Source: a virus (lineage: Duplodnaviria > Caudoviricetes). From it: a stretch of DNA of 44,282 bases. The stretch is taken from IMG/VR virus record IMGVR_UViG_3300024222_000003, positions 1-44,282 of that record; one strand, given 5' to 3'. The position numbers were made by a program, and so were the translations under genes. The notes beneath the pieces were generated by a model that saw only the letters and a list, made by a program, of their open reading frames with translations, was not told where the DNA came from and did no database searches. This document shows, in pieces, positions 67-44,255 of the stretch (position 1 is the stretch's first letter; every line of letters begins with the position of its first letter).

Positions 67-936
67 CTAACGTACTGACGTGCTGTCGCCGACGACCCAG
101 TACAGCACGCGCGGCCCCGTCAGTCGCAAGTCGTCGACCATGTACTCGTGCGCTTTCGACTCATAGATCGGGTCGAGTCGAAACCCCGGCGCGACTGCGC
201 GACGCACCTCTCGCGCGTACGGGTAGCGCGTCAGCGCGTGGTACTCGAACGGCAGCCAGCCCGCGATCGCGTTGATCTCGCGCGTACGATCGTACCCCGC
301 GACCTGCAGCAGCACGACTCGACGAACGTGCGGGCAGTGCGCGCGCACCCCGAGCAGTATCCCCGCTGCAGTGATGCCCGCCCCGACCGGCACGACCACC
401 GTCTCGACCTCGCGCGGGATGTTGCGCGCTTGCTGCGACGTCGAGCCGAGTATCGCTGCAGAGTGGTCGCGCAGATTGATGCCAAACTTCACGTGGTAGG
501 CCGCGCCGTGGCAGCGCTGCCAGCTAGCGATCGCAGCAGTCAGGGACGTCTCGTATGCGACGCGCGCCGAGCAGTCGAGTGTCGTGTTGAAGCGCAGCGC
601 CGTGCGTAGCATGCGATGACGGTCGAGCGCCCCGCGCTGCGTCGTCGCGCCTATGAACAGCACCGTTCGAAGCCCGTACTCGTATGCGACTCGCGCAATG
701 ATGAGTCCTTGAGGAGAGTGCACACCCGTCGCCGTCAGCACGACCCCGTTCAGTCGTCGTCGAATATCGTCAGCGCTCGGGCCGAGTAGTTTGATTGCCT
801 GTCGCACCTTCCCGCCCGACAGCGGCACGTCGTCGAACGGAACGAACAGATCGTCGCGCTTGTAGTAAGTGCCGTCGTGCTGCTCGACGGGGGTCAGTTC
901 GTCGGGGTTAGTGATCACAGTTGCGAACTGTGGCAC
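67..936 (-). CDS. PLP-dependent enzyme, fold type II (ACC deaminase / D-cysteine desulfhydrase-like)
   Basis: KRDD..SGGKVRQ (Schiff-base Lys region), VPVGAGITAAG phosphate-binding loop and LDPIYESKA match this family. Confidence 0.85.
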   Translation of the reverse strand: MPQFATVITNPDELTPVEQHDGTYYKRDDLFVPFDDVPLSGGKVRQAIKLLGPSADDIRRRLNGVVLTATGVHSPQGLIIARVAYEYGLRTVLFIGATTQRGALDRHRMLRTALRFNTTLDCSARVAYETSLTAAIASWQRCHGAAYHVKFGINLRDHSAAILGSTSQQARNIPREVETVVVPVGAGITAAGILLGVRAHCPHVRRVVLLQVAGYDRTREINAIAGWLPFEYHALTRYPYAREVRRAVAPGFRLDPIYESKAHEYMVDDLRLTGPRVLYWVVGDSTSVR

Positions 937-949
937 ATGGATAGTTCAC

Positions 950-2413
950 ATGCCCGAGCAGCGTTCAACGTCAACACGAGCGCGCAAGCGTTCGTCAGCA
1001 TCCACCCCCGCGCCCGCGCCCGCACCCGAGCGAGACCCGTCGACTGACGCAGCAGTCTGGATGAGTCCCGACTTGCTGCAGCCGTGGGCCGACAACCCGC
1101 GCGACAACCACGACTCGGTTGCGCGCGTCGTCGCGAGCATCAAGCGGTTCGGGTTCGGCGCGCCGATCGTCGCGCGTCGCGAGAACCTCGAGATCATAGC
1201 GGGGCACACTCGATGGTTCGCAGCGCGTCAGCTGCAGCTCGTCAGCGTGCCCGTGCGCCTGCTCGACATCTCCGAGTACGAGGCGCATCTGCTCGCGCTC
1301 ACCGACAATCGACTGACCGAGCGCACCGAGTGGAGCGACAAGCTGCCCGAGCTGCTCGCGCGCTACGAGCTGTCAGACGTGCAGCTCGCAGGCTGGGACG
1401 ATCTGCCGATGCTGTCGCTCGCAGGCAGCGGCGCCGATGGCGAGCTCGGCGAGTCGACTGAACGCTCGCTCGCGTTCGACGTCTTCCCAGTCGCAATGAT
1501 CGCCGACGCGCAGGTCGAGTCGATGCTGAACGTGACACATGACGCTTACGCGCTGACGACTGGGGATGTGATGGTCGAGCTCAACCGCTGCGCGGCCGGC
1601 GGCAAGCCGCTGGTGGGCTGCGCTGACCGATGGTTCCCGCATCGCTATGACGTGCTCGCTGGCCAGTCGAAGCACACGCCCAACGATACGCTGCGCGATG
1701 CTGTCGCGCTGCGCGGGGTCGTCGAGATGTGCGCCAAGGTCGGGCGAGCGCCGAACTCAAGCGCGATCCTGAACGCGTCGCAGCTCTACCACGGGCGACA
1801 AGGCGCTCGACAGTTCCCGATACACGTCGCCCGCGATGTGTATGCGCGCTACTCGAGACAGAACGCGGCCGTGCTCGACCCGTGCGCCGGCTGGGGCGGG
1901 CGACTGCTCGGCTGGCTCTGCGCTCGCCAGGGCGGCACTTACTACGGGGTCGATGCGAGCTCGCAGACCGTCTCGTCATTCGGGCGCATGATTGGCGACC
2001 TCAACATTCACAACGCGACCATCGAGCACAGCGCTTTCGAGGACATCGAGTTCGAGCCCAACACGTTCGACTTCGCGTTCACGTCGCCGCCCTACTTCAA
2101 CGTCGAGCGCTACTCGGCCGACGCCGAGCAGTCGTGCGTGCGCTATCTCGATTACGACTCGTGGCGGCTGGGCTTCCTCGAGCCGCTCGTTCGACTCACT
2201 CTCCGTGCCCTGCGCCCCGGCTGCGCGTTCGCGCTGAACGTTAGCGACGCTCGCGAGAACCAGATCGCACGAGATGCGACAGCGATCGCTCGCGAGCTCG
2301 GCGCTGACATCGAACTGTCAGCCAAGATCGACGTCGGCGGCGGCGCGCCCGCTGGCAACATGGGCATGGTCGGCACAAAAGAAGATCTCATCCTGATGCG
2401 CAAACGGACATAA
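950..2413 (+). CDS. ParB/Srx N-terminal domain fused to an amino-(N4C/N6A) DNA methyltransferase-like domain
   Basis: NPRDN..SIKRFGF..PIV..IIAGHTR..DNR (ParB/Srx); VLDPCAGWGGRLLG (SAM binding) followed by FTSPPYF (catalytic motif IV). ATG950 chosen to avoid overlap with the divergent gene. Confidence 0.85.
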   Translation: MPEQRSTSTRARKRSSASTPAPAPAPERDPSTDAAVWMSPDLLQPWADNPRDNHDSVARVVASIKRFGFGAPIVARRENLEIIAGHTRWFAARQLQLVSVPVRLLDISEYEAHLLALTDNRLTERTEWSDKLPELLARYELSDVQLAGWDDLPMLSLAGSGADGELGESTERSLAFDVFPVAMIADAQVESMLNVTHDAYALTTGDVMVELNRCAAGGKPLVGCADRWFPHRYDVLAGQSKHTPNDTLRDAVALRGVVEMCAKVGRAPNSSAILNASQLYHGRQGARQFPIHVARDVYARYSRQNAAVLDPCAGWGGRLLGWLCARQGGTYYGVDASSQTVSSFGRMIGDLNIHNATIEHSAFEDIEFEPNTFDFAFTSPPYFNVERYSADAEQSCVRYLDYDSWRLGFLEPLVRLTLRALRPGCAFALNVSDARENQIARDATAIARELGADIELSAKIDVGGGAPAGNMGMVGTKEDLILMRKRT

Positions 2414-2417
2414 CAAG

Positions 2418-2843
2418 ATGAGACAGCGACGCAAGGCCAGCACACGCAGCGAGCTTACGCCCGAGATACACGCGAGCGTAGTCGCTGCGCTTCGAATGGG
2501 CGCATTCAAAAAACACGCAGCGCTGTCGAGCGGCATACCAGCGAGCACACTCGACTACTGGATAGCCGAGGGCAACCGGGGCAACGCGCCGTACGTCGCG
2601 TTCGCGACTGACTGCGAGCGCGCGATCGCTGAGGACGCAATGCGCAATCAGTCGATCATTACGCGCGCGAGCATGGGCAAAGTCGAAGGCGACTGGCGCG
2701 CTGCAGCGTGGAACCTCGAGAAGAAACATCCGAAGCTGTACGGGCGCATGGCCGAGCAGGCGAAGAAGGACGACGAGCGCGAGCGGCCATTCAGCCCCTG
2801 GAAGGTGATCGATGCCCCAGATGCGTTATCCAAACACAACTGA
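2418..2843 (+). CDS. Putative terminase small subunit
   Basis: N-terminal HTH-like segment (AALSSGIPASTLDYW) and DWRAAAWNLEKKHP motif seen in TerS-like proteins; lies upstream of TerL. Confidence 0.65.
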   Translation: MRQRRKASTRSELTPEIHASVVAALRMGAFKKHAALSSGIPASTLDYWIAEGNRGNAPYVAFATDCERAIAEDAMRNQSIITRASMGKVEGDWRAAAWNLEKKHPKLYGRMAEQAKKDDERERPFSPWKVIDAPDALSKHN

Positions 2844-3399
2844 GATCACGCCGATCATCCGCAGCGAAGGCCAGCGCATGTTTCTACATGTCGAGGGTTC
2901 ACTCGACGCGATAGCGCGCGAAGTCGGCGCGAAGGGAAAGCAGAGCATCAGCGAGTGGCGCTCGGGCCGTAAGATCCCGTCCATCGAGATGCGCGCGCGC
3001 ATTCAGTCAGCATTCGGCATACCCGCCGGCGCGTGGTCGAAGCGCCCTGCCGGCGCTGACGGCGTCGAAGCGACGAGCGTGCAGACACAAGAGGCCGAGG
3101 CACTGCCCAGCACGCTCGACGACTGTCTCGCGCTGCTCGCAGTCATTCGACGCGACCGCAAGCAGGACGGCCTACTCGCAGCAGAGCGCGTCAAACTGTC
3201 AGACGCGGAGGCGCGAATACTCGCACTGCGCGCGCGACTCGAGTCAGCGCACGAGCTCGCCGAAGATCGCTATGTGCGCGACCACCCCGCGTGGAAGCGC
3301 ATCGAGCGTCTACTCGCTGAGGCGCTCGAACCGTTCCCCGAGGCCGCGAAGGCCGTACACGCTGCACTGCTGCGCGCGCTGCGTGAGGTCGAACAGTGA
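2812..3399 (+). CDS. XRE-type HTH protein with helical C-terminus
   Basis: LDAIAREVG..QSISEWRSGRKIPS HTH pattern; stop overlaps the TerL start (GTGA). Confidence 0.65.
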   Translation: MPQMRYPNTTEITPIIRSEGQRMFLHVEGSLDAIAREVGAKGKQSISEWRSGRKIPSIEMRARIQSAFGIPAGAWSKRPAGADGVEATSVQTQEAEALPSTLDDCLALLAVIRRDRKQDGLLAAERVKLSDAEARILALRARLESAHELAEDRYVRDHPAWKRIERLLAEALEPFPEAAKAVHAALLRALREVEQ

Positions 3400-5057
3400 C
3401 CACATCGATCGCTGCAGAGGTCGAGGTCCGCCGCGGTCGACGCAGCGAGCCCGCGCGACTGTCGATGCTCGGCGCTTTGTTCGGCGTCGTCGCGCTCGTT
3501 CTCGAGCGCACGCTGCACATACGCTTCCCTGACCCCAAGTATCAGGCAGCGCCGATCGCGTTCGCGAACGACGTGCTCGGGGTCGACCCGTGGTCGCGAC
3601 AGGCCGAGATACTCGAGGCTGTGCGCGACTACGATCGCGTCGCCATCGCGTCAGGTCACAAGGTCGGCAAGAGTCACAGCGCGGCCATCATCGCGCTGTG
3701 GTTCTATTGCTCGTATCCAGACGCGCGGGTTGTGATGACGTCGACCACGAGTCGTCAGGTCGACCAGATACTTTGGCGCGAGCTGCGCATGATGCGCGCG
3801 CGCGGCGGGCGCTGCGTCGCTTGCAAAGCGCGCGACCCCGAGGCGCTACTGATACCCCGACCGTGCGACCACTCGACGCTCATCGAAGGCGAGATGGGCG
3901 AGCTGGCGCGTACGGGTCTCAAGTCGCAGGACTTCCGCGAGATCGTCGGTTTCACTGCGCGCGAGGCCGAGGCCGTCGCAGGCATCTCGGGCCGGCACTT
4001 GCTGTACATCGCAGACGAGGCGAGCGGCATCGGCGACGACATATTCGAAGCCATCGAAGGCAACCGCGGCGGCGGCGCCAAGCTCGTGCTGCTGGGCAAT
4101 CCCACGCGCAACGAAGGCACGTTCTATGAAGCTTTCACGAGCAAGCGTCATCTGTACAAGACACTACGCGTCAGCAGCGAGGAGTCGCCGAACGTAGTCG
4201 AAGGTCGCGCAGTGATCCCCGGCCTCGCAACGCGCGAGTGGATAGACGAGAAGCGCATCGAATGGGGCGCTGACAGCGCGCTGTACAAGGTGCGTGTGCT
4301 GGGTCAGCACGCCGAGCACGAGGACGCGAAGATATTCAGCGTTCACGCGATCGCGATGGCCGAGCAGCGATGGTCGACGACGCCCGCCGAGGGCCGGCTG
4401 TTTATCGGTCTCGACCCCGCGGGCGAGTCGGGCATGGGCGACGACACGTGCTTCGCAGCGCGCCGCGGGCTGAAACATCTAACACTGCGCATGCAGCGCG
4501 GTCTAAACGACGACGCGCATCTCGCGCATCTGCTGCTGCTTATCGGTGAGCTGAAACTGCCGCGCGAGACGCCTGTCGTCGTGCTCGACCGTGAGGGCGC
4601 GATCGGCTCGAGCCTGTTCGGGCGACTGCGCTCGTATCTCGAGACACACGGCAACGAGTTCGAGCTCGTCGCAGTGCGAGCGTCAGACCGCGCGCAGCGT
4701 AAGCCGATCGTGTACGACCGCATGCGCGACGAGCTCGCTGCGAATCTCGACCAGTGGTTCCGTGACGGCGGCGCGATACTCGAGGACGTGCGACTCGCGA
4801 ACGAGCTGCACGCACTCGAGTGGAAGCAAGCGATCAACGGCCGACTGAAACTCACGCCGAAGGACGTGCTGCGCAAAGCGCTCGGGCGCTCGCCCGACCG
4901 ATACGACGCGCTCGCCCTCAGCGTGTGGGAACCGCTGTCGCTGCAGGACGACCTCACCCCCGCCGCATCTGCAGCTGCTGCAGGCGAGGACTCGGGCGGC
5001 TACGCCGAGCAGACACTCGACCCTTACGCAGCGGGCAACATATGGCGCGGACGCTGA
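3396..5057 (+). CDS. terL: Terminase large subunit
   Basis: Walker A SGHKVGKS, Walker B YIADEASG, coupling motif LLGNP, nuclease motifs IGLDPAG..GDD and SPDRYDA. Confidence 0.93.
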   Translation: MTTSIAAEVEVRRGRRSEPARLSMLGALFGVVALVLERTLHIRFPDPKYQAAPIAFANDVLGVDPWSRQAEILEAVRDYDRVAIASGHKVGKSHSAAIIALWFYCSYPDARVVMTSTTSRQVDQILWRELRMMRARGGRCVACKARDPEALLIPRPCDHSTLIEGEMGELARTGLKSQDFREIVGFTAREAEAVAGISGRHLLYIADEASGIGDDIFEAIEGNRGGGAKLVLLGNPTRNEGTFYEAFTSKRHLYKTLRVSSEESPNVVEGRAVIPGLATREWIDEKRIEWGADSALYKVRVLGQHAEHEDAKIFSVHAIAMAEQRWSTTPAEGRLFIGLDPAGESGMGDDTCFAARRGLKHLTLRMQRGLNDDAHLAHLLLLIGELKLPRETPVVVLDREGAIGSSLFGRLRSYLETHGNEFELVAVRASDRAQRKPIVYDRMRDELAANLDQWFRDGGAILEDVRLANELHALEWKQAINGRLKLTPKDVLRKALGRSPDRYDALALSVWEPLSLQDDLTPAASAAAAGEDSGGYAEQTLDPYAAGNIWRGR

Positions 5058-39997: not shown

Positions 39998-40753
39998 GTG
40001 TCTCGCGCGCGAGCGTGCTCGATGACGCTGCAGCACTGCAGCTCGCACACGCTCGCGCAGCGGGTGCGGGCCGAGCTCGGGCGCGTCGACAACGTCATCG
40101 CAGATCCGCCGTTCTCAGAGCGCGTCAGTCGAGGCAGCTCGAACGGTCGACGACGCGACAGCTCGACGGGCGTGTCGACGCGCGGTCTCGAGTACGCGTC
40201 GTGGTCGAGCGACGACGTTCGCGCGTTCGTCGCTGACTGGGCGCCGCTGTGCGCGCGCTGGTTCGCCGTGCTTTGCAGCCACGATCAAATACATACGTAC
40301 GAGCGCGAGTTCGCGAACGCGAAGCGCTACGTGTTCGCGCCCGTACCGTGCGTTGTCACTGGCTCGAACGTGCGGCTGTGCGGCGACGGGCCGTCGAGCT
40401 GGACGAGCTATCTCGTCGCGAGTCGGCCGCACGCTATGACGCCGCGCTCGGGCACGCTGCGCGGCGGGTACTGGGGTCCGCGCGAACGGCTGCTCGTCAG
40501 CGGGGGCAAGCCGCTCTGGCTGATGCGCGATATCGTGCGCGACTACTCGCGCCCCGGCGAGCTCGTGTGCGACCCATGCGCGGGCTCGGGGACGACGCTG
40601 CTCGCAGCGCGCATCGAGCGTCGAGCGTTCGTCGGCTGCGAAGCGGACGCAGGCAGGTTCGAGCGTGCTCGCGCACGACTAACGCGACGTACTGACAAGC
40701 GCGCAGTACACAGCGAACGCGAGCACGACGCACCAGCCGACAAAGATCGCTAA
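39998..40753 (+). CDS. Orphan DNA amino-methyltransferase (beta class)
   Basis: IADPPF precedes KP..LM..IV..YSRPGELVCDPCAGSGTT; start may be ATG40022. Confidence 0.85.
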   Translation: MSRARACSMTLQHCSSHTLAQRVRAELGRVDNVIADPPFSERVSRGSSNGRRRDSSTGVSTRGLEYASWSSDDVRAFVADWAPLCARWFAVLCSHDQIHTYEREFANAKRYVFAPVPCVVTGSNVRLCGDGPSSWTSYLVASRPHAMTPRSGTLRGGYWGPRERLLVSGGKPLWLMRDIVRDYSRPGELVCDPCAGSGTTLLAARIERRAFVGCEADAGRFERARARLTRRTDKRAVHSEREHDAPADKDR

Positions 40754-40819: not shown

Positions 40820-41098
40820 ATGACAATCGACCCACGCACCGACGACGAGCCCGCCCCTGACAACGAGCTGCCACCCGAGCCCGAGCCCGAGACTGAACCC
40901 GAGCCCGAGCCCCGAGACGCGATCGTTGTGATGACTGCGCAGCAGCTGCGCGAGTGGTGCGTGAACCTGACCGTGCACCCGGTCGCGCTCGGCGACCAGC
41001 CTGTGATGGTCAAGCTCGACGCGACAACGATCGTCCCGATCGTCGGCATCTCGTGGTCGCCGGGCGCGCCGCTGTACTTGCTCGCGTCTATTGCGTGA
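40820..41098 (+). CDS. Hypothetical protein with Glu-Pro repeat
   Basis: PEPEPETEPEPEP segment followed by a small globular domain. Confidence 0.55.
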   Translation: MTIDPRTDDEPAPDNELPPEPEPETEPEPEPRDAIVVMTAQQLREWCVNLTVHPVALGDQPVMVKLDATTIVPIVGISWSPGAPLYLLASIA

Positions 41099-41633
41099 CG
41101 GTGAGCGCGCGCTGCGCGAGACACACGCCCGCTCGATGCTCGATAGCGCCGCTCGTCGCGACGACGGTCACGTCGCATGCGTTGCCCTCACCGCACGGCA
41201 GGGGCGCCGTGTAGCGCGGACCCCAGCCGAGGCCGTCGGCTGCGCTGGGGTCGGGCGAGCGCAGCACGCACGACCACGAGACGCTGCGAGCGCTGTACGT
41301 CACGTTGCCCGCGGGCTCGCCCTTAGCTTCGAATGTCTCGCAGCCCCAGGTCTTGCCGTCGCTCGTGCGACAGAACGGGGCGCGTAGCGCGTACTCGGTC
41401 GCGTAGCTCGTCGACTCGGGGCACGCGGGCGCAGTCGGGCACTCGACGGGCGCGGGGCACGCGGGCGCTGACGGGCACGCAGGACACGCGCTGCAGCCAG
41501 CGCACGAGCTCGCTGGCGGGCAGCTCGCAGCACCGGCGGGCGAGTACACGTTCGCGGGCGAGCTCGTCGCTGCGTCGCTGCACGCAGCTGCGAACGCGAC
41601 TGCGACTAGTACACACACTGCTCGGGGTGTCAT
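41088..41633 (-). CDS. Cys-rich predicted lipoprotein
   Basis: Signal peptide with lipobox (FAAAC), CP..PACP repeats, Cys-rich C-terminal domain. Confidence 0.7.
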   Translation of the reverse strand: MTPRAVCVLVAVAFAAACSDAATSSPANVYSPAGAASCPPASSCAGCSACPACPSAPACPAPVECPTAPACPESTSYATEYALRAPFCRTSDGKTWGCETFEAKGEPAGNVTYSARSVSWSCVLRSPDPSAADGLGWGPRYTAPLPCGEGNACDVTVVATSGAIEHRAGVCLAQRALTVTQ

Positions 41634-41746: not shown

Positions 41747-41791
41747 CGAGCGCCCCGACTTGACGACGTGACCGTCAAGTCGGGGCGCTCG
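41747..41791 (-). terminator. Intrinsic terminator
   Basis: 19-bp stem CGAGCGCCCCGACTTGACG, 7-nt loop, TTTT shortly after on the - strand. Confidence 0.8.
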
Positions 41792-41806
41792 TTGTGTTTC
41801 AGCTGT

Positions 41807-42265
41807 TCAGCGCTTGCGCTTGCTCTTGATTGTCAGCTTCGCGCCGCTGCTCGTCATCGACACATTGCCGAGCATGTCTGCTGACAGCTTGCCGTCGAGA
41901 CAGAGGTCGACAGCTTCGTAGAATGAGACTTCGCGCTCGCTCGCGTCGTCGAGCTCACGCTCGATAGCTTCGTACACTTCCTCTTCGACGCGAGCTGCGA
42001 TCATTCCGTCGCGCGCGGGGTTGCTCGTCGACGGGGTGGCCACGATCGCGAGCGCTGCAGTTTTCAGCTTGTAAGCTTCGACTGTCTGCAGCTGCGCAGC
42101 GCTGCGCTTGACGGGGCGAAGCTCGGGACGGCCGACTCGATGACACGTGAACACGAGACCACGACGAGTCTCGCGAACTGCGCTGCTTTCGACGACGACG
42201 CGCGTCAAGCGATTGTTGATGCGCGTTACGTAGATGCCACCGATGACGACGTGTGCTTGTTTCAC
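41807..42265 (-). CDS. Hypothetical early protein (cassette A)
   Basis: Bounded by its own promoter repeat and terminator; GAAAGCAGTA upstream of GTG. Confidence 0.75.
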   Translation of the reverse strand: MKQAHVVIGGIYVTRINNRLTRVVVESSAVRETRRGLVFTCHRVGRPELRPVKRSAAQLQTVEAYKLKTAALAIVATPSTSNPARDGMIAARVEEEVYEAIERELDDASEREVSFYEAVDLCLDGKLSADMLGNVSMTSSGAKLTIKSKRKR

Positions 42266-42271
42266 TGCGTG

Positions 42272-42354
42272 TACTGCTTTCGTTCTCGCGTCAGCGACGC
42301 GCTGACTTGATATCTAAACAGTATCAGAACTGCAGCACGCGTCAATGTGACTGC
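42272..42354 (-). promoter_or_regulatory. Repeat promoter-hairpin-RBS unit A
   Basis: TTGACG-N16-TACTGT with extended TGn; GTCAGCG stem at 42290-42306. Confidence 0.8.
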
Positions 42355-42389
42355 GAGCGAGTTCGTCGAGCGCTGACGTCAGAAAACGA

Positions 42390-42425
42390 CTGCGCCCCGT
42401 CGAGCTTGTACTCGACGGGGCGCAG
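42390..42425 (-). terminator. Intrinsic terminator
   Basis: 15-bp stem CTGCGCCCCGTCGAG, 6-nt loop, T-tract on the - strand. Confidence 0.8.
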
Positions 42426-42444
42426 AGTGTGAGGTGTGCGCGTA

Positions 42445-42801
42445 TCAGTGATTCACGAGCTCGTCAGCGCAGTACAGCTCGAACGCGCGCAGCACGTGCT
42501 TAGAGGTCCAGCGCTTCCCCGAGGGGGGCGCGAAGCGTTCAGCGTTCAGCTTCTTTGCGACTGCTGCGAAGTCGTCAGCGCGCGGGGCCTCGTCGTTTGT
42601 GCGAACGCGCAGCGTCTCGACTGCATGCACGAGCTTGCGTTGAATCTCGTGCTCGCGACATGCTTCGACGTTGCACGCATCGCACTCTTGACAGCGCTCG
42701 CAGTGCGACTCGAACGAGCGGCCGTCCATGTCGTGCGTGGGCAGCGCTGACATGTCTTGAGTGTTGCACTTACCGCAGCATGTGTGATTCGCGAGCTTCA
42801 T
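42445..42801 (-). CDS. Cys-rich protein with a C-terminal recombinase-type DNA-binding motif (cassette B)
   Basis: CCGKC..CERCQECDAC; VAKKLNAERFAPPSGKRWTSKHV resembles the serine-recombinase Recombinase domain. Confidence 0.7.
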   Translation of the reverse strand: MKLANHTCCGKCNTQDMSALPTHDMDGRSFESHCERCQECDACNVEACREHEIQRKLVHAVETLRVRTNDEAPRADDFAAVAKKLNAERFAPPSGKRWTSKHVLRAFELYCADELVNH

Positions 42802-42808
42802 TCTGACT

Positions 42809-42889
42809 TACTGCTTTCGACTACGTCAGCGACGCGCTGACTTGATATCTAGACAGTATCAGAGTCGCAGCGCGCGTCAATGTGACTGC
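42809..42889 (-). promoter_or_regulatory. Repeat promoter-hairpin-RBS unit B
   Basis: Near-identical to unit A: TTGACG-N16-TACTGT, hairpin 42825-42841, GAAAGCAGTA. Confidence 0.8.
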
Positions 42890-42913
42890 GCGCGAAGCTT
42901 CGACGAGCACAAA

Positions 42914-42959
42914 AGCGCAGCGCCCCGTCGAGCTGCTGAACTCGACGGGGCGCTGCGCT
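42914..42959 (-). terminator. Intrinsic terminator
   Basis: 19-bp stem AGCGCAGCGCCCCGTCGAG, 8-nt loop, T-tract on the - strand. Confidence 0.8.
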
Positions 42960-42982
42960 GGTGTGCGACTACTGCGACGAAC

Positions 42983-43195
42983 TCACTTAGCGTCGCTGGG
43001 GTCGATCCCAGCGTTCAAGTCGCGACACATGAATCGAGCGTCGTCACACGACGTCGCAGCGCGCGAGCGATAGTTGAATGTATTGTACGCAAAGTACGTC
43101 GTCTGCGCGTTGTTCGGCCCCGCTGGAACGCTCATGACGATCCATGTCTTGCTGCTCGTGCTCGACGTCGACTTGCTGCTGCTGCGCTTTGTCAT
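42983..43195 (-). CDS. Hypothetical early protein, 70 aa (cassette C)
   Basis: ATG43195 follows the shared GCAGTA leader; terminator downstream. Confidence 0.65.
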   Translation of the reverse strand: MTKRSSSKSTSSTSSKTWIVMSVPAGPNNAQTTYFAYNTFNYRSRAATSCDDARFMCRDLNAGIDPSDAK

Positions 43196-43198
43196 CTG

Positions 43199-43279
43199 TA
43201 CTGCTCGCTCGTTCTCGTCAGCTCGATTGCTGACACTCATACTGTCGCACGCTCGTCAGACTCGCGTCAATGTGACTGC
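43199..43279 (-). promoter_or_regulatory. Repeat promoter-hairpin-RBS unit C
   Basis: Same 15-mer (43265-43279) and GTCAGC hairpin (43217-43234); weaker -10. Confidence 0.7.
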
Positions 43280-43335
43280 GCGCGCATTCGACTGACTGCT
43301 CGTCGAACGCGCGCGCTGCGTGTGCTGGTGTGTGA

Positions 43336-43587
43336 CTACTCGTCGCGCTGCTGCGCTCGTCGACGAACGTGCGAGACGCTCGACGCTGCAGCGTTGCGCG
43401 CTTGATGCGCAGCGCAGCGCGTCTGACCTTCAAGCGCGAGCTCGTCGCACTCGTAGCATCGCGCTTGAACGCGACGCGCTGCGCGCAGATCGCGCATGTA
43501 CGCTGCTCGTGCAGCTCTGCAGAGCTCGCAGCGCGCGCTCGTGTGCTTGCATGCTTCGCATCTGAAACTGTCAGACATCTGATTCAT
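43336..43587 (-). CDS. Small Zn-finger-like protein
   Basis: CEAC, CELC, CYEC and CAAH motifs; overlaps the upstream gene. Confidence 0.65.
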   Translation of the reverse strand: MNQMSDSFRCEACKHTSARCELCRAARAAYMRDLRAARRVQARCYECDELALEGQTRCAAHQARNAAASSVSHVRRRAQQRDE

Positions 43588-43924
43588 CCTTGCGCACTAG
43601 TCGCAGATGCGAGCGTCGCTCGTCGACTGCTGCGCGCTCGTTGTGTCGTCGCATCGCTAAGAGCGCGCGCTTGCGCGTTCGTTCTGACGCAGAGTGAATC
43701 GCGAGTGCTGCGCACGCACCAGCTGACAGAGAGTCGACGTCGAGCTCGTCGCTGTGCTCGACGAGCTCGCTCGCGCGCAGCATGACGTAGTTGCTCGTGT
43801 CGGGGCCAGTGAGCGGTTGAACGAGCTCCTTGCGGCCCTTGCGCTGTACGAGGATGACGAGCTGAGGCACTCCGTCGATGTTCGCGCGATACACAAGGCC
43901 GTCGCTGATGACTGTACGCTTCAC
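43571..43924 (-). CDS. Hypothetical early protein (cassette D, first gene)
   Basis: GTG43924 with GGAG RBS (ATG43945 is an alternative start). Confidence 0.6.
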   Translation of the reverse strand: MKRTVISDGLVYRANIDGVPQLVILVQRKGRKELVQPLTGPDTSNYVMLRASELVEHSDELDVDSLSAGACAALAIHSASERTRKRALLAMRRHNERAAVDERRSHLRLVRKDESDV

Positions 43925-43946
43925 TGTGCAGACTCCGATTCGCATG

Positions 43947-44013
43947 CAGCGCTGAACTGCGCTGTTCGTTCATTCATAGTCACATTGATGCGCGCGCTCG
44001 TCAATGTGACTGC
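43947..44013 (-). promoter_or_regulatory. Repeat promoter-hairpin unit D
   Basis: 15-mer at 43999-44013; TTGACG-N17-GACTAT; CAGCGC hairpin at 43947-43964. Confidence 0.7.
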
Positions 44014-44255
44014 TGAGATGCTCGACGAGCTCGAGGTCGCTTGACGTGCTGAACCCCGCCATGGCGGGGATGGTTGGCGAGCGCGCTGCACGGGGCTGGC
44101 GCGGGCGGTGGCGGGTCTGGCTCGTGCTCGACCTAGCGGGGATGGTAAGCGCCACGGCTGGGCTGGCTGGCACGCGCCAGGGCTGGTGCCATGCCTGCGG
44201 TGGCTGGGATGGCACCCCGGCCCTTACAGTGCAGAGCGGCGCAGGTACGCGTGCA

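Follow-up and report, generated by a model that had tools for sequence, protein, structure and literature searches.

A CC/GG desert in the predicted early cassettes of a temperate myovirus and its link with a phage-encoded ParB-transferase

Why should the small genes at one end of a phage genome, promoters included, be nearly stripped of a single dinucleotide, CC/GG? The question is raised by the virus record IMGVR_UViG_3300024222_000003 of 44,282 nt (the window; positions are numbered over the whole record), which consists of the complete 44,255-bp genome of a temperate myovirus plus a 27-nt overlap. On its minus strand, from 44050 down to 41800, lies an array of four small-gene cassettes predicted to be expressed early, and the CC/GG desert coincides with these cassettes. 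The desert is real and selected and goes beyond codon usage. Among related phages, deserts of this kind follow a phage-encoded transferase in which a ParB domain is fused to an amino-methyltransferase fold with an SPPY motif. Probably, this enzyme marks virion DNA at its own short word, a mark that genes transcribed ahead of replication avoid.

The core of the desert, 43144-43800, comprises 657 nt of 62% G+C with four CC/GG steps (GG at 43327 and CC at 43427, 43588, and 43719), exactly at the positions listed in the original prediction. More than 100 steps had been expected there, and the zero-order expectation is indeed 127, though the genome's own rate is lower: elsewhere, windows of 657 nt contain 76±12.6 steps, and none has fewer than 48. 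In genomes simulated by Markov models of order 1, 2, 3, and 5 (10 each, n=40), no window fell below 39. The observed/expected ratio (O/E) drops to about 0.03 in the lowest 657-nt stretch of the desert, and the longest gap between steps is 185 nt. Compared with the rest of the genome, CC/GG alone is depleted, across every flanking context. The proposed k-mer decomposition singled out no 4-6-mer, and the unit of loss is the whole dinucleotide. A general effect on homodinucleotides or on purine-pyrimidine alternation was rejected because AA/TT is not depleted relative to the genome. Only 3 CC/GG occur in the 494 nt of the four promoter/leader stretches, and once its hairpins are set aside the zone 42266-44050 has 52 where 197 would be expected. 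The purge affects the coding and the template strand equally; this absence of asymmetry rejects a block confined to the template strand, a type of block that would at the same time have told which base is modified. The residual CC/GG is found mostly in the stems of terminator hairpins, in Gly/Pro codons, and in Shine-Dalgarno boxes.

Amino-acid content alone does not explain the desert. With the proteins of the cassette genes (e1 to e5, Table 1) fixed and the codons resampled, e2 has 0 optional CC/GG against 24 expected, followed by e3 (5/13), e4 (12/28), and e5 (12/43), under a lenient null in which ordinary genes also drop to 41-67% of expectation. On a genome-scaled basis, three early genes rank within the top four of 47 for depletion, and cassette genes account for all four of the lowest CC/GG ratios. 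The e2 protein had been described as 83 aa long with one Gly and no Pro or Trp. The composition stands, but the likelier start is the ATG at 43578, which gives 80 aa and leaves an AAGGA Shine-Dalgarno box that accounts for the CC at 43588. The GAAAGCAG leader had also been taken as a case of GG avoidance, a reading that is not supported, as the same leader accompanies homologous cassettes in the relative G002, which lacks the transferase and does not avoid GG (262 CC/GG in its cassettes against 214 expected).

The five cassette genes encode roughly half the usual share of Gly, Pro, and Trp (3.5/2.6/0.4% against 8.3/5.3/1.6%), and GGA is the most avoided triplet genome-wide. Both facts speak for selection at the RNA level in highly expressed genes, namely against Shine-Dalgarno-like GG and against stalling at proline. 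However, untranscribed promoter DNA is purged, both strands are hit, GGA is enriched in the desert of the relative G007, and the late, highly expressed capsid genes keep CC/GG. Such an origin is hardly credible and is largely refuted.

A milder CC/GG bias is present throughout the genome (O/E 0.50 for CC, 0.58 for GG, and 0.54 overall), as had been claimed, but it gives no evidence of a modification module. GG ratios of 0.52 and 0.60 occur in relatives with no match to the pyridoxal phosphate (PLP)-dependent enzyme of the window (G001, partial, and G002), and the CC/GG ratio is 0.58 in G215, a bacterial chromosome carrying a related prophage. The mild bias is a separate signature of the host lineage. 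It might be supposed that, where small genes and spacers are under weak constraint, this bias simply went all the way, given the closeness of the phage value to that of G215 and the position of the most extreme stretch over orphan genes. However, across 428 kb of G215 no 657-nt window falls below 0.35 and no gap exceeds 89 nt, so host bias cannot yield the local desert. DNA outside long open reading frames (ORFs) stays at 0.50-0.67 in the window genome and close genomes, and homologous cassettes in the relatives G002, G774, and G779 keep CC/GG. Moreover, the deserts of GAC, and of GGC but not GGA, in the relatives described below do not follow from a CC/GG bias. The neutral account is thus very improbable and largely refuted. 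As a side observation, G215 has a CG O/E of about 1.6 (L279-L281, L314-L333).

Association across phages had been named as a check, with the ParB-transferase and the PLP enzyme at the left end of the window as the candidate module. Every record at least 90% complete from the searches with the terminase large subunit and the primase was taken whole. The close transferase domain is carried by five complete genomes, the window, G006, G007, G775, and G774 (55-59% identity in the domain), and 11 complete relatives are without it (G002-G005 and G777-G783). An early-operon desert is found in 5/5 of the former and 0/11 of the latter, so that the envisaged counterexample, a relative without the module showing the same desert, was not encountered. 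The best GC-adjusted desert scores (log10 p) of the carriers are -22.5 for CC in the window, -21.9 for GGY (Y, pyrimidine) in G007, -17.8 for GGY in G775, -10.5 for GAC in G774, and -8.7 for GCC in G006, compared with -5.1 to -8.4 in the enzyme-less relatives, all being scan minima for words picked after scanning among non-independent kin. The score ranks of carriers and non-carriers separate completely (p 2.3e-4, uncorrected for kinship).

The purged word changes with the enzyme clade, being GG in the window, GGC/GGT in G006, G007, and G775, and GAC in G774. A count of total CC/GG reveals no desert in G006 or G007, the nearest genomes with both genes; the scan of all 2-3-letter words found their GGC/GGY deserts. 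Across the promoter, small genes, and integrase of G007, GGC/GCC occurs 21 times against 117 expected and GGT/ACC 21 against 50. The same desert is weaker in G006 (32 against 93). G775, with no PLP match, has 22 GGY against 92 expected. G774, also without PLP match and from another transferase subgroup, keeps GG and has 15 GAC/GTC against 62 in a cassette array, where its five GAC-poorest genes adjoin (0/6.8, 2/7.5, 2/6.1, 3/8.0, and 2/4.3, observed/expected). When amino acids are held constant, depletion is strongest in early-operon genes in the window, G006, G007, and G775, and in the last three the purged gene encodes an integrase-like recombinase. The switch of word is visible even between homologues of e2 (about 42% identity), which have 1 CC/GG and 11 GAC/GTC in the window, 40 and 0 in G774, and 31 and 8 in the enzyme-less G779. 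In a tree built from the primases of 15 genomes (G004, having no primase match, was omitted), carriers stand in three places among or beside enzyme-less relatives, at least two of these placements being forced by well-supported branches.

Unlike the cassettes of the window, the deserts of G006, G007, G775, and G774 lie mid-genome, downstream of TTG-type promoter-like sites. The shared feature is therefore early expression rather than first entry. Together with the two PLP-less carriers, these positions connect the desert with early expression and with the transferase but neither with first injection nor with the PLP gene. The PLP gene as driver was accordingly rejected, and the association that had been proposed for the whole module holds for its transferase only. 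A second methyltransferase of the window (39998-40753) was rejected too, as a 61% homologue is present in G005, a genome without a desert. Apparent deserts in G005 (GGA), G004, G782, and G784 were discarded as simple repeats or compositionally odd stretches; that of G005 (L036:16680-17230) is a GGCAAGGCA-type simple repeat of about 550 nt after a RecD gene.

A scan also covered 106 loci around transferase relatives (±10 kb; 4 of the close clade). Clear GGC/GGY deserts were given by three loci of the G006/G007 type, and about a dozen others passed 1e-7 with mixed words. G012, which has a PLP gene and a weak transferase match, has no clear desert. A strong GA/TC desert (93 against 208) was noticed beside a distant SPPY transferase on a low-GC viral contig (L404:11400-13000). 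Local loss of GG-containing words was also seen near distant SPPY transferases at L345/L346, L354, L368, L392, L428/L447, and L454, the depletion at L345 (G784) lying in an acidic, compositionally odd gene.

The ParB-transferase has a class I methyltransferase fold, with an S-adenosylmethionine (SAM)-binding motif I and a (D/N/S)PP(Y/F) motif IV in a Rossmann fold; CAGWGGR and SPP are invariant or nearly so in 48 sequences. SAM-binding motif followed by SPPY is also the order in N4-cytosine/amino-methyltransferases (PF01555), from which the protein differs in scoring below the Pfam cut-off. Its weak matches are N6_N4_Mtase, 2zie, and a Vibrio phage 'N-4 cytosine-specific DNA methylase', and the fold matches include Trm11. 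Motifs of this kind are also present in RNA G-N2 methylases. The searches turned up no close relative that has been characterised, and relatives in cultured phages are only 23-29% identical. In two cultured-phage regions no neighbour is annotated as a PLP enzyme, all those of DAC16 being hypothetical. The segment before motif I differs among GG, GGY, and GAC carriers, as might be expected of a recognition region. In the PLP protein, which matches 1j0a, K43 is the same in all 46 sequences compared and aligns with the lysine of 1j0a. The protein is 23-28% identical to proteins of 157-kb ViI-like phages, and an SPPY transferase lies within 5 kb in 42/79 PLP loci.

Some relatives have other enzymes in these positions. 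The slot upstream of the terminase small subunit gene (terS) holds MT-A70 in G006 and G007 (G006 L238:59-613), and in G781-G783 (L548, L553, L554) a ParB domain and a beta-type N6/N4 enzyme, either fused or side by side. G002 has a different modification module, a ParB-like gene with a TAGT glycosyltransferase (L028:1559-3186), where no TET match was seen. GAT/ATC is mildly low in G002 (22/41 in the cassettes and 23/35 in the integrase).

How might such an enzyme empty the early genes of its word? The ParB-transferase would be made late, as its position beside terS in the window and in G774 suggests, and would modify the DNA bound for packaging. The purged words share only their first G:C pair, which makes that pair the likely target; the mark would thus sit on the G:C pair opening 5'-G-purine(-pyrimidine), most simply on C-N4 in view of the SPPY motif, with G-N2 as the alternative. 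On either strand it could hinder promoter opening or the passage of RNA polymerase. The host RNA polymerase is predicted to read the cassette array straight from the incoming marked DNA; early genes would lose the word unless a hairpin, a Shine-Dalgarno box, or a Gly/Pro residue needs it, and later genes would be read from fresh unmarked copies. The original prediction had proposed a bulky CC/GG modification, made by the PLP/ParB-methyltransferase module and poorly tolerated by host RNA polymerase. Of this, the tie to the transferase is borne out and that to the PLP enzyme is not, the mark itself being predicted.

As to the chemistry, it is suggested tentatively, by analogy, that the group is bulkier than a methyl, namely an aminocarboxypropyl from SAM, which the PLP enzyme, where present, would trim to aminopropyl. 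In microcin C, MccD and MccE yield an aminopropyl group by a SAM transferase and a PLP decarboxylase (PMC10491745), the same chemical logic on a peptide-nucleotide instead of DNA and hence an analogy only. In a broader and equally speculative form, a ParB-SPPY family with switchable 2-3-nt specificity (GG, GGY, and GAC) might add such a PLP-trimmed base, and the mark might silence the whole incoming genome except the recoded operon.

Several points weigh against marking by the transferase as the cause of the desert. DNA resembling virion DNA gave normal assemblies from short-read runs, and RNA polymerase usually tolerates a plain methyl and many major-groove adducts. In the window, the integrase (148/158), repressor, and replication genes are unpurged though needed early, and e1 is purged in its 3' half with its 5' 125 nt unpurged. 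A sigma70 scan called none of the promoters A-D, whose -10 boxes are weak. In the comparison, apart from the choice of words after scanning, only three independent lineages bear the enzyme, and the score of G006 (-8.7) is barely above those of G005 (-8.4, a simple repeat) and G004 (-8.2). Furthermore, no clear desert is found in G008 and G011 (complete) or G009, G010, and G013 (partial), which have the PLP gene and a transferase of 31-37% identity. There is no consistent desert at the 102 loci (±10 kb) around distant transferases, and no CC/GG depletion at low-GC PLP-family loci.

The layout of the window admits another reading, in which a host defence of the restriction, protospacer adjacent motif (PAM), phosphorothioate, or ADP-ribosylation type reads short G-purine words on incoming DNA and selects the purge in the genes that enter or are expressed first. 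The transferase would then be only a counter-measure against the same host enzyme, and enzyme and desert would occur together with no causal tie between them. The left end holds the PLP gene, the ParB-transferase, and terS, and the cassettes fall within the final 2.6 kb ahead of the likely right end. In runs X3, X5, X6, and X8 (three studies), contigs end at 44245, and 44256 equals record position 1. A GGCCC..ACAGTG motif common to G002, G005, G006, and G007 stands just upstream of 44246-44255, and contigs of relatives break just past it, upstream of terS. These contig stops and breaks point to a likely fixed end with a 10-nt cohesive stretch, which would place the cassettes at the right virion end. 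In lambda-like phages the right end enters the cell first, and the first-step-transfer DNA of T5 is said to avoid motifs in its first-injected region. Murciavirus avoids motifs of type I restriction-modification in its leading region (PMC12455610), and depletion of the CC PAM is reported in phages targeted by type I-F systems (PMC12174588). Additionally, differing hosts could account for differing words.

The desert shares with leading-region avoidance the restriction of the missing short word to a variable set of small early genes, which in the window are placed at the likely leading end. It differs in that the word has 2-3 nt instead of being a 4-8-bp site, overrides codons and amino acids, is missed mid-genome in the relatives G006, G007, G775, and G774, and follows a phage-encoded rather than a host enzyme. 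With CC-PAM depletion it shares the dinucleotide and the effect on both strands; PAM depletion is a reduced frequency across targeted genomes, whereas the desert is a near-total local loss with other words in relatives. The loss of all GG contexts, with no 4-6-mer singled out, also argues against a host defence, as do the 11 unpurged enzyme-less relatives, some with homologous cassettes. The type I-F protein Csy3 occurs in 6/301 genomes, many incomplete, of the inferred host family. Moreover, DNA protected by a phage methylase should need no purge. The original prediction's second hypothesis, that first-injected DNA evades CC/GG-keyed defences, thus fits the layout of the window but neither the mid-genome deserts nor the GAC word nor the scarcity of Csy3, and a host defence is considered unlikely as the cause.

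The host itself is likely a member of Myxococcota, since relatives of the major capsid protein occur in 29/301 genomes of one family, which includes a Myxococcales metagenome-assembled genome. Among the best matches listed in 383 genomes of the likely host family, the close-clade transferase domain is absent, those matches being mainly to the ParB domain. The runs that hold the phage best are soil metagenomes, and no RNA run is among the listed runs holding it.

A further alternative accepts that the phage enzyme marks the DNA but places the cost elsewhere, in a protein of host or phage origin, such as a modification-dependent nuclease or a silencer, that would cut or bind marked DNA and against which mark-free cassettes would first express an inhibitor. 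It would account equally for the match of enzyme, word, and desert and would explain the strand symmetry; nucleases sensing diverse hypermodifications, and phage inhibitors of them, are described (PMC12191111). However, family searches placed no cassette protein in a known family, a weak zinc-ribbon lead for one of them being all that emerged. A nuclease would also cut the marked remainder of the genome, and the purged gene of G006, G007, and G775 is an integrase-like recombinase, not an inhibitor. This alternative is therefore held to be quite improbable.

Judged by its gene content, the phage lies outside the ViI/M6, Dpd, and TET/TAGT systems. Thymidine hypermodification in ViI/M6 combines an amino-acid:DNA transferase with a PLP decarboxylase, and ViI gp226 is a DNA-acting decarboxylase of an amino-acid adduct modelled on 1j0a (PMC8989533). 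A PLP fold-type II enzyme with its lysine and the 1j0a template are common to both; here the PLP enzyme is partnered by an SPPY SAM transferase, and G:C is the basis of the word. Among the 57 ORFs of the window compared with PHROGs and Pfam there is no amino-acid:DNA transferase, hmU (5-hmdU) kinase, aGPT-Pplase2, or thymidylate-type enzyme. 7-Deazaguanine systems use similar G-purine words, reportedly GA and GGC in CAjan. In PA5oct the words are GA and/or GG (PMC12191111). Neither a DpdA transglycosylase nor preQ0/Que genes were found among the 57 ORFs, nor a 5mYOX dioxygenase or TAGT glycosyltransferase of the TET/TAGT kind, the ParB and TAGT genes of G002 notwithstanding. A phage modification enzyme fused to ParB is also known from the ParB-dependent T-dioxygenases (PMC13229309); here, ParB-N lies beside terS.

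Local motif avoidance is usually read as escape from host enzymes, whereas here the word follows a phage enzyme. If marking by the transferase is indeed the cause, the modification motif of a phage could be read from the word missing in its early genes, and the cost of self-modification would be strong enough to rewrite promoters and proteins. This suggests a general way of inferring modification motifs in uncultured phages from sequence alone. Three enzyme-motif predictions (GG, GGY, and GAC) follow, checkable in E. coli without phage culture, and the SAM transferase and PLP pair, recurring across phage contigs, possibly makes a new DNA base. No description of self-modification-driven purging of early genes was found in the literature searched, a search with subscription papers mostly outside its scope.

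The features discussed are collected in Table 1. Behind every one of four repeat copies ending in TTGAC come a leader and one or two small ORFs, and three hairpin terminators separate or close the cassettes. From these repeats, A-D are predicted to be early promoters. The promoter repeat had 118 single matches in viral contigs, none at a CC/GG-poor locus, and homologue searches with e1 and with e2, as well as single-query searches with the integrase and the PLP gene, gave nothing useful.

Table 1. Features of the window, in order of position
Feature	Position	Strand	Remarks
PLP-dependent fold-type II enzyme	67..936	-	SGGK lysine; candidate tailoring enzyme, not required for desert
ParB-N fused to SAM-dependent amino-methyltransferase fold	1061..2413	+	DPCAGWGG, TSPPY; directly upstream of terS; candidate writer
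Terminase small subunit (terS)	2418-2843	+	with large subunit fixes left end and packaging direction
Helix-turn-helix gene	between terS and large subunit, inside 2418..5057	+	
Terminase large subunit	3396-5057	+	
Bidirectional terminator-like hairpin	41747..41791		closes array
Wider CC/GG-poor zone	41800..44050	-	four promoter-leader-ORF(-terminator) cassettes, predicted early
e5	41807..42265	-	152-aa ORF; 5' part aligns with unpurged G002 cassette gene
Promoter-like unit D and leader	42266..42389	-	repeat 42341-42354; 0 CC/GG
Terminator-like hairpin	42390..42425	-	
e4	42445..42801	-	118-aa Cys-rich ORF; homologue in G002, unpurged there
Promoter-like unit C and leader	42802..42906	-	repeat 42876-42889; 0 CC/GG
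Terminator-like hairpin with T run	42907..42966	-	CCCC/GGGG kept in stem
e3	42983..43195	-	70-aa ORF; homologue in GGC-purged operon of G007
Desert core	43144..43800		4 CC/GG steps in 657 nt
Promoter-like unit B and leader	43196..43335	-	repeat 43266-43279; 1 CC/GG
e2	43336..43578	-	80-aa Cys/Arg-rich, putative zinc-binding; 1 Gly, no Pro/Trp, 1 CC/GG
e1	43571..43924	-	117-aa ORF, GGAG Shine-Dalgarno upstream
Promoter-like unit A	43926..44050	-	repeat GCAGTCACATTGAC 44000-44013, then inverted copy; TTGACG -35-like box, weak -10
GG-rich packaging region	44051..44255		GGCCC..ACAGTG motif common to relatives
Candidate 10-nt cohesive end	44246-44255		from contig stops

The inverted repeat copy of unit A (43978-44013) gives an operator-like arrangement that units B-D do not have. 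In run X6, a related strain has a different sequence past the terminator at 42443 (30 letters, no CC/GG), and a contig of the same run joins promoter repeats C and B (42872-43263). These junctions suggest that cassettes may be swapped via the repeats. The strain variants listed number seven, too few to give a direction of mutation.

Many of the 57 ORFs have no annotation; those that do include Mu-like head genes, a contractile tail, an integrase, a repressor, and a primase. Over the whole genome, the six-letter words AGTACT, CTGATC/GATCAG, and AAGTTC/GAACTT occur at zero copies, probably a restriction-type avoidance. Finally, 41088-41633 encodes a Cys/Pro-rich protein predicted to be exported, which is possibly a recently shared moron, its C-terminal part being 83% identical to the G002 counterpart as against 38-66% for core genes.

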